From the sequence record NC_023693.1: a stretch of DNA of 64,000 nt; one strand, given 5' to 3'. Below are positions 24,345 to 26,429 of the stretch, in pieces. Under the pieces are notes generated by a model that was not told the DNA's origin, ran no database searches, and saw nothing but the letters and a program-made list of their open reading frames with translations. Made by a program: the position numbers and the translations under genes. The DNA comes from Escherichia phage phi92. Position 1 is the first letter of the stretch, and each line of letters begins with the position of its first letter.

Positions 24345-26429
24345 GTGGCAAGGAAACCTGTCAAACAATCTTTTGAAAATGTAGATATTGAAGTTAAAGC
24401 CCAACCTGGCAAACAAACATTAGCTATGGATCTTATGCCTGAAGTAATGATTTATGGTGGTGCGGCAGGTTGTGTTTCAGCAGAAACAGAATACCTAACA
24501 AGAGACGGTTGGAAACAAATAAGTGAATATGATGGTGAGGATATTTATCAATACAATCCAAGAAATAAACGTCTTGAATTAGTTACACCATCTTTTGTAG
24601 AATATGATGCTAAAGATAATCTGTATTGCATCACAAACGGAGTAGGTGTCTTCCAAGAATTAAGTATGGAACATCGCTTTGTTTTCTACAAGAAGAAAAA
24701 ATCCAAAAAACATTTTGAAATTCTTGTTGGGGATCTTATTGCACTACAGCAAGCAGGACACCCATTACGAGGATATATTGAAAATCCTTTTGGTAAACGT
24801 GTTCCGTTTAACATTCAAGGTAAACCTAGCACATACCTAAAAATTCATGAGGTAATGACAAGTGATGATAAGAAATATTGCTTTGAAACTCCAAGCAGTT
24901 ATGTCGTGTTTAGACGTGGCGATCACATCTTCGTTACTGGGAATAGCGGCAAAAGCCGTCTGCTACTTCTAAAGGCACTTAAATACGCATATAAAGATCC
25001 ACTGTTTGGTGGTATTCTTTTCCGTAAAAATACAACAGCTTTACGTAAATCTGGTGGTTTGTTTACTGAAGCTAAAAAACTTTATCTACCATTAAAGCCT
25101 CACGTAAGAGAACAGGCTATGGAGATGGAGTTCAGAGCCACAAAAGGTGGTACACTTAAATTTGACCATCTTGAAAATGATAACGTAACTGCTGAAACTA
25201 ACCATCAAGGTACACAGTATTCGATGGTGGGGTTTGACGAACTTACACATTTTACACAATATGAGATGCTATATCTGTTAGGGCGTATGCGTTCTGAATC
25301 AGAAACGTCTTTTATGCTGTGTACTTGTAACCCTGATGCGGATAGTTGGGTGTTAAAGTGGGTACTTCCTTATTTGGATGAAGCTGGTTATCCACGAGAA
25401 GATATGTGTGGCAAACAGCTATACTTTCTTATTGTGCAAGATGAACCAGTATTTGCTGAAACAGCAGAAGAGTTGAAAGAAAAGTATCCTGAAAACTGTT
25501 TTATGCAAAACCCAAACACAGGTGAAACAGTGGTTATTGAACCACAAACATTTGTGTTCATTGGTGGTACTATCTTTGATAACCCTGAACTGATAAGACT
25601 TAACCCTAAATACTTAGCTTCTTTGAAGGCTCAAACCGCCGTTAAGAGAGCACAGCTTTTAGATGGTTGTTGGTTTGCTCGTGCACAAGAAGAGAGTTTC
25701 TTTAACAGAGAATGGTTGCACGTTATCAAGTTTAAAGATTTACCAAACAATCTTAAATATATGCGAGCGTGGGATAAAGCTGTATCTGTTCCAACAGAAT
25801 CCTATCGTTATCCTGACTACACAACATCTGTTAAAATGGCTAAAGACTCTGATGGAAATTATTACATTTTTGGTGATTATGATTATGATGCTCACGATGA
25901 AGGTAGTAAAATTTTTGGTAGATTCAGAAGACTACCAGGTGATCGAGATAATTTAATTCTAAACCAATGTAAGATTGATGGAGATGAAGTTACAGTTGTA
26001 TTACCAAAAGATCCTTCTGGTGCTGGTTTGATTGAATATACAGAATCAGCTAAAAAACTAATTGCTGAAGGGTTTGTTGTTAAACCAGATGCTATGCCTG
26101 GTAACAAGAAAAAATTACAACGCTTTATGCCATTTAGTAGTGCTTGTCAAAATGGTTTTGTTTATATTGTAGAAGAATCTTTCCCTAACAAAGAAACTCT
26201 TGATCATTTCTATAAAGAGATGGAGTCGTTTAATGGAGAAAGATCTACAGCAACATTAAAAGATGATATTCCAGATGCTGCTGCATCTTGCTTTAATACT
26301 TTGTCAAAAGAACAGATGTTTAAAGCAGTAGCAATACCTTCTGCAACAAATGCATTAACAGGCTACGGTAAGATGGGTGGAAGATCAAGAAACTCTTTAT
26401 CTTCTCCATATAGTATCAGAGGAAGATAA
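24345..26429 (+). CDS. terL: terminase large subunit, apparently interrupted by a mini-intein
   Basis: GTG start after AGGAGG; Walker A split as YGGAAG / SGKS around a Hint-like insert; Walker B VGFDELTH; nuclease-domain KDPSGAG. Confidence 0.75.
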   Translation: MARKPVKQSFENVDIEVKAQPGKQTLAMDLMPEVMIYGGAAGCVSAETEYLTRDGWKQISEYDGEDIYQYNPRNKRLELVTPSFVEYDAKDNLYCITNGVGVFQELSMEHRFVFYKKKKSKKHFEILVGDLIALQQAGHPLRGYIENPFGKRVPFNIQGKPSTYLKIHEVMTSDDKKYCFETPSSYVVFRRGDHIFVTGNSGKSRLLLLKALKYAYKDPLFGGILFRKNTTALRKSGGLFTEAKKLYLPLKPHVREQAMEMEFRATKGGTLKFDHLENDNVTAETNHQGTQYSMVGFDELTHFTQYEMLYLLGRMRSESETSFMLCTCNPDADSWVLKWVLPYLDEAGYPREDMCGKQLYFLIVQDEPVFAETAEELKEKYPENCFMQNPNTGETVVIEPQTFVFIGGTIFDNPELIRLNPKYLASLKAQTAVKRAQLLDGCWFARAQEESFFNREWLHVIKFKDLPNNLKYMRAWDKAVSVPTESYRYPDYTTSVKMAKDSDGNYYIFGDYDYDAHDEGSKIFGRFRRLPGDRDNLILNQCKIDGDEVTVVLPKDPSGAGLIEYTESAKKLIAEGFVVKPDAMPGNKKKLQRFMPFSSACQNGFVYIVEESFPNKETLDHFYKEMESFNGERSTATLKDDIPDAAASCFNTLSKEQMFKAVAIPSATNALTGYGKMGGRSRNSLSSPYSIRGR
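24471..24944 (+). other. putative mini-intein (158 aa) inside terL P-loop
   Basis: begins with Cys (CVSAETEYLTRDG), internal MEHRFVF block, ends DHIFVTGN followed by Ser; excision would restore GGAAGSGKS. Confidence 0.55.

Follow-up and report, generated by a model that had tools for sequence, protein, structure and literature searches.

A candidate cis-splicing mini-intein in the Walker A loop of the large terminase of Escherichia phage phi92 and its Stephanstirmvirinae relatives

The large terminase gene of Escherichia phage phi92, a myophage that infects E. coli and belongs to the genus Justusliebigvirus (Stephanstirmvirinae), carries an in-frame insert in the middle of its ATP-binding loop. 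The gene was analyzed within a stretch of 64,000 nucleotides of sequence record NC_023693.1 (hereafter the window), where the open reading frame (ORF) listing places it at 24345–26429 on the plus strand. It has a GTG start and encodes a large terminase (TerL) precursor of 694 amino acids (79.2 kDa), which matches Pfam Terminase_6N and Terminase_6C as well as phrog_979 (terminase large subunit; E 3e-221). The first 42 residues (24345–24470, +), the putative N-extein, end in the first half of the Walker A motif, GGAAG (24456–24470), with Gly at position −1, as seen in the translation and in the alignment with insert-free homologues that read IYGGAAGSGKS. These are followed by a segment of 158 residues (24471–24944, +; 18.4 kDa), whose translation runs from Cys1 to Asn158 (CVSAETEYLT...DHIFVTGN). 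The remaining 494 residues (24945–26429, +), the putative C-extein, start at Ser+1 of SGKS (24945–24956), the second half of the Walker A motif, and run through the remainder of the ATPase and the nuclease domain, in line with the translation and the Terminase_6C match. The translated flanks thus read ...VMIYGGAAG and SGKSRLLLLK, and the Walker A consensus GxxxxGK[ST] is interrupted between its fourth and fifth residues, Gly42 and Ser201 of the precursor. We consider it very likely (a probability of roughly 0.88) that the insert functions as a cis-splicing mini-intein and has become fixed in the large terminase of the Stephanstirmvirinae. This reading draws on the anatomy, fold, homology, distribution and selection of the segment, from which the splicing chemistry set out further below is predicted.

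The comparison with homologous terminases shows the segment to be an insertion. Its deletion in silico gives the P-loop GGAAGSGKS, as predicted by an initial annotation made from the sequence alone, and yields a protein of 536 amino acids whose alignment with P0020, an insert-free homologue of 63% identity, is gapless across the junction. The Terminase_6N match of this product reaches position 1 of the profile and scores 68.6 bits, against 61.7 before deletion, and Pfam Terminase_3 comes out above its curated cut-off. An uninterrupted IYGGAAGSGKSRL is found in many proteins of ~500–530 amino acids among the 120 listed homologues, the closest being P0019–P0021, which are insert-free at this site and 63% identical. 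A comparison with such intein-free homologues had been suggested earlier as a check; they exist, and they are continuous at the junction. Position +1 is occupied by Ser in 38/38 insert-bearing alleles, and by Ser, Gly or Ala in the insert-free homologues. The location given in the initial annotation is correct to the base, as 24471–24944 comprises exactly 158 codons with Cys as the first and DHIFVTGN as the last residues. With a GC content of 35.0% for the intein and 36.9% for the extein, base composition does not indicate a recent foreign origin. The ORF listing holds no ORF of at least 60 amino acids in the other frames or on the other strand within 24471–24944, and a six-frame search of the window with a hidden Markov model (HMM) of the intein family found no further copies.

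In its predicted structure, the insert has the HINT (Hedgehog/intein) fold. A profile built from 13 inserts at the same site retrieved one significant solved protein, the AceL NrdHF intein (PDB 6zgq; E 2.9e-8), which is the closest relative by sequence in the profile search and also by structure comparison. Structurally, the phi92 intein is no closer to the canonical class 3 inteins, which carry a Trp-Cys-Thr (WCT) triplet, than to class 1 inteins. The Hint-like blocks that had been noticed from the letters alone are, given this profile match, real rather than fortuitous. An alignment against intein profiles, also proposed earlier, gave a divided result, in that the standard Pfam and NCBIfam models stayed silent while the family profile matched 6zgq. 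Detection of the relationship required both a family profile and a predicted structure, and because the family as a whole escapes the Pfam and NCBIfam models, automatic pipelines will go on missing it. As a side observation, phrog_32482 ("PhoH-like phosphate starvation-inducible") matches 24411–24743 of the window (TerL residues 23–133; E 6e-15), which spans the P-loop and the N-terminal half of the intein. This family was evidently built from intein-containing PhoH proteins, and the match could cause terminases to be mis-annotated as PhoH, or the reverse, by automatic pipelines.

Blocks A, B, F and G of an intein could be assigned along the segment; counts for family domains, here and below, refer to domains from the top 148 representative proteins of the family search, where the position aligned. 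Block A (N1), CVSAETEYLTRDGW (24471–24512, +), opens with Cys1, the candidate first nucleophile, which is invariant in 38/38 terminase inserts and in 206/206 aligned family domains. It is paired by hhalign with block A of Npu DnaE (CLSYETEILT) and of gp41-1. Block B (N3), S65-M-E-H68-R69-F70 (24663–24680, +), is an SxxH form of the TxxH motif, with Arg following the His and Phe at B:12. His68 is invariant (212/212 family domains), position 65 is either Ser or Thr, and in the HMMER alignment His68 falls on His68 of AceL NrdHF, which reads S65-P-N-H68-R69-M70. The central linker (residues 81–123; 24711–24839, +) is specific to the clade, occupies the position of the homing endonuclease of relatives, and is modeled with lower confidence (predicted local distance difference test scores of 58–82). 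Block F (C2), KYCFETPSSYVVF (24873–24911, +), has Cys137 (24879–24881) at F:4 and is without the block F histidine; Cys at F:4 is near-invariant in the family (206/213). Block G (C1), HIFVT156-G157-N158 (24924–24944, +), combines Thr at G:5, Gly in place of the usual penultimate His, and a terminal Asn. A [T/S]-G-N ending is found in 169/192 family inteins, with Gly conserved in 199/206 and Asn in 206/206.

In an alignment of 13 sequences, C1, E7, G13, W14, H68, D132, K135, Y136, C137, G157, N158 and S+1 are invariant, E7 being only near-invariant in a wider alignment of 27 sequences. The residues generally required of an intein (C1, H68, N158 and S+1) are conserved in all 38 insert-bearing terminase homologues, and the fuller catalytic set of C1, S/T65, H68, C137, T/S156, G157, N158 and a +1 nucleophile is kept in these 38 inserts and in some 200 family domains. 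The block F cysteine, the relationship to a class 3 intein and the G|S insertion site had been overlooked in the initial annotation.

The 38 inserts at the identical terminase site have lengths of 146, 158–159, 246 or 301–328 amino acids, and all of them start with Cys and end in [T/S]-G-N followed by Ser. The 146-residue minis include the one in Vibrio phage PWH3a-P1. For one of the forms of ~300 amino acids, the 328-residue insert of homologue P0023, a structure model contains a LAGLIDADG homing endonuclease. An HMM of these ~300-residue relatives covers only residues 1–80 and 124–159 of the mini-intein, which agrees with the earlier remark that the phi92 insert is too short to hold an endonuclease. 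Two further candidates connected with this endonuclease were rejected. The central helix GDLIALQQA was paired by MAFFT with GELRLQVAVMADG of the long relatives, as would befit a relic of a LAGLIDADG helix, but the central piece scores below 0 against the long-form HMM. Likewise, Pfam LAGLIDADG_3 matches in representatives with several inteins proved to be located in other inteins of the same proteins. Without a homing endonuclease, the phi92 element would no longer be mobile, and would be inherited vertically with its gene.

The family extends far beyond terminases. A profile search of 1.84 billion representative proteins gave 12,221 matches at E≤1e-3, the weaker of which may include inteins in general, and 159 matches at E≤1e-30. 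Among the best 148 proteins, the interrupted motifs include P-loops (G|SGKS, G|CGKT, G|TGKT), the RtcB motif GVDIG|CGM and the Toprim motif EGE|CD, and T7-type primase-helicases, PhoH, a glycosyltransferase and SpoVR are among the host proteins. Family inteins have a median length of 316 amino acids, and minis make up only 11/192. One case, read directly, is RtcB of Bacillus phage JBP901 (NC_027352, 2279–4402), in which a family intein of 312 amino acids (C1...LSKEH...DGFKYCF...ITGN|C) sits at GVDIG|CGM; the record labels this gene only as "tRNA splicing ligase". In the Vequintavirinae E. coli phage Av-05 (KM190144, 2411–3541), a family intein of 241 amino acids occupies the identical GGAAG|SGKS site. 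The Av-05 terminase coding sequence is annotated at only 376 amino acids and ends shortly past the Walker B region, which suggests that this annotation, near the start of the record, is truncated or mis-set. Sporadic presence at a fixed site, a nested endonuclease and the use of several host proteins together form the signature of an intein lineage.

A DNA search with the TerL gene showed 99.4% nucleotide identity to Escherichia phage arall and about 50 others, with a single matching place in each listed genome, and tblastn found the full-length element in about 132 phage records, which include Justusliebigvirus and Phapecoctavirus, in the TerL gene in every listed case. As these insert-carrying phages are viable and lytic and each listed genome has one place for TerL, the precursor must mature, which is strong, though indirect, evidence for splicing. 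The initial annotation had held that a segment shared by homologues as a conserved structural insertion would count against an intein. Such sharing is formally the case across the Stephanstirmvirinae, but we take it to reflect a fixed intein and not a structural domain. Within the 158-residue clade, intein identity follows extein identity, both ranging from ~70% to 92%, except in P0016 (intein 55%, extein 71%). The ratio of nonsynonymous to synonymous substitution (dN/dS) against phAPEC8 and Klebsiella phage KP2025 is 0.06–0.07 for the intein and 0.04–0.07 for the extein, values that are approximate with synonymous sites near saturation. Three records of ~146–150 kb that are assigned to other hosts, Campylobacter phages C3 (MG065656) and B15 (MG065650) and Acinetobacter phage vB_AbaM_ABPW7 (OP562383), contain inteins with 100% or 87% identity to the ones found in E. 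coli Justusliebigvirus or Phapecoctavirus; it looks as if either these host labels are doubtful or the distribution is unexpectedly broad.

The penultimate residue, Gly157, had been read correctly as Gly instead of His, and had been taken as a reason to doubt splicing competence. This doubt does not hold up: a penultimate Gly is not a defect, since it is a hallmark of the family and is shared with AceL NrdHF, in which replacement by His destroys activity. The AceL NrdHF intein ends in T144-G145-N146, has neither the block G nor the block F histidine, and splices nearly to completion within minutes, while its G145H variant is inactive (PMC7891396). Its Arg69, adjoining the block B His, is in contact with the C-terminal scissile carbonyl; it accelerates the reaction, which R69A slows (PMC7891396). 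In mycobacteriophage inteins, penultimate Gly, Lys or Ser is common, and precursor accumulates when the penultimate Gly of the Bethlehem RDF intein is changed to His (Kelley et al. 2016, PMC5050341). In the phi92 intein, the missing penultimate and block F histidines are probably compensated by Arg69, as shown for AceL NrdHF.

On these grounds, a pathway for the maturation of TerL can be proposed. Translation would first give a 79-kDa precursor with a broken Walker A motif, and with this motif split, the unprocessed precursor should not bind ATP, judging from general knowledge of P-loop NTPases. Folding of the HINT domain would bring the two splice junctions together, after which a thioester would arise at the carbonyl of Gly(−1). 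The N-extein would then be handed over to the Ser+1 side chain, and cyclization of Asn158 would free the 18.4-kDa intein. A final O-to-N shift would produce a 60.8-kDa terminase with an intact GGAAGSGKS loop and the predicted junction peptide QTLAMDLMPEVMIYGGAAGSGK. The first thioester would most likely be formed by Cys1 in the manner of class 1 inteins, Cys1 being invariant across hundreds of divergent members; Cys137 at F:4 would then replace the usual Asp or relay the acyl group. Provided that splicing occurs, we would assign somewhat more than half of the weight for the initiating nucleophile to Cys1, a little under a third to an obligate role of Cys137 along the class 3 route, and the small remainder to a relay or redundant use of both. 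A class 1 start is favored because Cys1 is invariant, while a class 3 start or a relay is favored by the near-invariance of Cys137 and by the AceL precedent.

Several points weigh against splicing by this scheme. Scans of the 158-residue insert against Pfam and NCBIfam at E≤1 returned no family, and phmmer, run with the single sequence against PDB sequences, found no more than chance matches resembling WW domains. A profile search with the C-terminal part did not retrieve 6zgq, the crystal form of which has the mutations C124A and N146A. The assignment of Cys137 to F:4 is based on alignment and spacing, and both histidines that usually assist Asn cyclization are absent from the phi92 intein. 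Arg69, the proposed substitute, is variable outside the 158-residue clade, being Cys or His in the 146-residue minis and Lys, Thr, Asp, Ser, Asn or Arg in longer forms. The Asp at F:4 that is typical of class 1 inteins is replaced by Cys, and the only characterized relative uses its F:4 Cys, not residue 1, as the nucleophile. The scheme in which Cys1 acts first is a weighted guess, and splicing of the terminase members of the family is proposed from sequence and structure comparison.

At F:4, most class 1 inteins have Asp, while class 3 inteins have a Cys that attacks the N-terminal junction and forms the block F branched intermediate. By the published definitions (Hoffmann et al., Tori et al.), a position-1 Cys is absent or not required in class 3. 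Compared with class 3 expectations, the phi92 intein has the expected Cys at F:4 (Cys137) and Thr at G:5 (Thr156), but Phe70 where Trp is expected at B:12, and an invariant Cys1 where no nucleophile is needed at position 1. In the family as a whole, B:12 is Val, Met, Ile, Leu or Phe, with Trp in 2 cases only. Of the class 1 features, Cys1 is present and invariant, but both the typical Asp at F:4 and the penultimate His are absent. As Cys1 is present and invariant, the phi92 intein is not a class 3 intein by these definitions; its nearest characterized relative nonetheless is.

The strongest alternative, which we still regard as unlikely, is splicing along the class 3 route, in which Cys137 would attack the Gly(−1)–Cys1 bond and pass the N-extein from a block F branched thioester to Ser+1, leaving Cys1 with a structural, redox or back-up role. 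AceL NrdHF, the closest relative, has been proven to be of class 3 and shares S-x-x-H-R, Cys F:4, T-G-N and Ser+1 with the phi92 intein (PMC7891396), and the near-invariant Cys at F:4 is accompanied in the family by a conserved Thr or Ser at G:5. Ser or Thr is also dominant at +1 (145/192), like in class 3 inteins (PMC2807308), and Tori et al. mention three WCT inteins with Ser1 or Cys1 that were then under test as possible class 3 members (PMC2807308). However, conservation of Cys1 in every aligned domain and every terminase insert runs contrary to the class 3 definition, and the Trp of the WCT triplet is missing here and in nearly all of the family.

A more speculative possibility, which we hold to be doubtful, is that this very large phage-borne family needs both thiols, either in a relay from Cys1 to Cys137 to Ser+1 or in interchangeable class 1 and class 3 routes, and so bridges the two classes. 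AceL NrdHF would then be derived by loss of Cys1, independently of the WCT lineage. If true, this would contradict both a single origin of class 3 and the view that class 3 cannot have a direct class 1 ancestor (PMC4031507, PMC7664689).

Compatible with either route, but improbable in our estimation, is conditional splicing, in which Cys1 and Cys137, as neighbors in the active site, would form a disulfide or bind metal and so keep the terminase inactive until conditions become reducing and would thereby tie packaging to the state of the host. Two cysteines that are invariant or nearly so exceed the need for a single nucleophile, redox trapping through Cys1 is documented elsewhere, for instance in Pab MoaA (PMC10663303), and the intein is under strong purifying selection in a lineage where it has lost the ability to home. 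The cytoplasm of E. coli is reducing, however, and the conservation is equally explained by catalytic need and by the lethality of imprecise loss from a P-loop. Moreover, the same two cysteines are present in family members within many unrelated proteins, which argues for chemistry rather than terminase-specific regulation.

Bacterial intein-like (BIL) domains, which mainly cleave, lack a +1 nucleophile and occur in variable regions of non-essential proteins, whereas the phi92 insert is followed by a conserved Ser+1 and interrupts the catalytic loop of an enzyme that is essential. A HINT-like insertion that is domesticated or structural and stays in the mature terminase, or a BIL-like domain that merely cuts it, would fit with its presence in every Justusliebigvirus and Phapecoctavirus terminase examined, its evolution at the rate of the host protein and the failure of standard intein models to recognize it, but is very improbable, as a domain of 158 residues inside the phosphate-binding loop is incompatible with established P-loop function, cleavage alone would part the 42-residue half-loop peptide from the rest of the enzyme, every residue for full splicing is conserved while +1 varies only in insert-free alleles, and occurrence in many catalytic sites together with the endonuclease of the modeled same-site relative is the behavior of mobile inteins.

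Upstream of the terminase, lysis genes were identified. Overlapping i-spanin and o-spanin genes (23670–24101 and 24007–24336, +; phrog_4297 and phrog_1267) are annotated likewise in phage EmilieFrey, and as this pair ends 9 nt before the terminase start codon, the lysis genes immediately precede the packaging module. Among the four scanned ORFs just upstream of TerL, none was recognized as a small terminase subunit. An ORF of 106 amino acids (23002–23322) falls into phrog_3330, a family of unknown function. The lysis and packaging genes are preceded by 15 clustered tRNA genes (19625–22544, +); for one of these (20508–20583), ARAGORN reported "tRNA-???" with a two-base anticodon call.

Returning to the mini-intein, phage large-terminase inteins, including ones in the P-loop, are well documented (PMC5050341), and a 2025 survey of actinophages lists 293 terminase inteins. 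Terminase P-loop inteins, mini-inteins and penultimate residues other than His are thus already known. Distinct here are the combination of a Terminase_6-type host with a G|SGKS site, and a divergent family with Cys1, Cys F:4 and T-G-N that is missed by Pfam and NCBIfam and has been overlooked. A literature search found no earlier description of an intein in the terminase of phi92 or the Stephanstirmvirinae, most subscription journals lying outside its scope. The listed GenBank records name the gene as terminase or hypothetical protein, with one "large terminase with endonuclease". Carriers include commonly used E. coli phages such as phAPEC8, several phages of the BASEL collection and therapy candidates. 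The TerL genes of EmilieFrey (Bas61) and PaulScherrer (Bas60) are 99.1–99.2% identical in nucleotide sequence to that of the window (EmilieFrey 99.2%), and both contain the intein. For these two phages, supplementary table S5 of the BASEL paper gives 0 and 2 inteins, respectively (PMC8594841); the published counts for this group are therefore probably too low by at least 1. A 2024 paper on one of the intein-carrying phages states that inteins in coliphages are unreported.

Since the interrupted gene is essential and the phage is lytic and able to grow on E. coli K-12, the intein offers a tractable in vivo system in which splicing is coupled to plaque formation. Its combination of Cys1, Cys F:4 and T-G-N with kinship to a proven class 3 intein bears on the origin of class 3 from class 1. 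Small inteins with Ser+1 that do without the two assisting histidines and accept Gly at −1 are also of interest for protein ligation.

Among known systems, the phi92 intein most resembles AceL NrdHF (Hoffmann et al. 2020, PMC7891396), with which it shares S65-x-x-H68-R69, Cys F:4, a Pro four residues after this Cys, T-G-N, Ser+1, the absence of both assisting histidines and a phage-like origin. AceL NrdHF, however, has Ala1, whereas the phi92 intein and its whole family have Cys1. It is also split in nature, its halves being separated by a free-standing GIY-YIG endonuclease gene, while the phi92 intein is contiguous; its host is a ribonucleotide reductase subunit and not a terminase, B:12 is Met instead of Phe, and sequence identity is ~20%. 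The mycobacteriophage inteins TerL1-a and TerL1-b likewise interrupt a phage large terminase in its Walker A loop, and the survey that describes them shows that a penultimate His is often missing from phage inteins (Kelley et al. 2016, PMC5050341). They differ in lying within Terminase_1-type proteins at the classic GK|T site, while the Terminase_6-type protein of phi92 is interrupted two residues before the Lys, at G|SGKS. In the same survey, Terminase_6-like proteins carry inteins only in the C-motif, unlike the P-loop site of phi92 (PMC5050341).

With the canonical class 3 inteins of the WCT type (MP-Be DnaB, Msm DnaBi1 and MchDnaB1), for which a phage origin has been proposed, the phi92 intein shares Cys F:4, Thr G:5 and a Ser/Thr-type +1 residue. 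Their position 1, however, holds no nucleophile or one that is dispensable, and their B:12 residue is Trp, whereas phi92 has an invariant Cys1 and Phe at B:12. Class 1 minis of phage origin (gp41-1, NrdJ-1 and Npu DnaE) are similar in being endonuclease-free HINT domains of 125–160 amino acids, contiguous or split, with Cys1, a terminal Asn, a block A that reads C-x-x-x-[TE]-x-x-[LT] and a T/SxxH block B. Their F:4 residue is Asp and their penultimate residue His (for example, T-H-N in gp41-1), in contrast to the Cys and Gly of phi92. Finally, the inteins of JBP901 RtcB, PWH3a-P1 TerL and Av-05 TerL carry the same signature, C1...TE[YF]L..GW...LS.EH...DG.KYCF...[IV]TGN, and the two in terminases occupy the identical G|SGKS site. 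These relatives differ in size (312 amino acids with an endonuclease region and Cys+1 in JBP901, 146 in PWH3a-P1 and 241 in Av-05), and are 27–38% identical to the phi92 intein.

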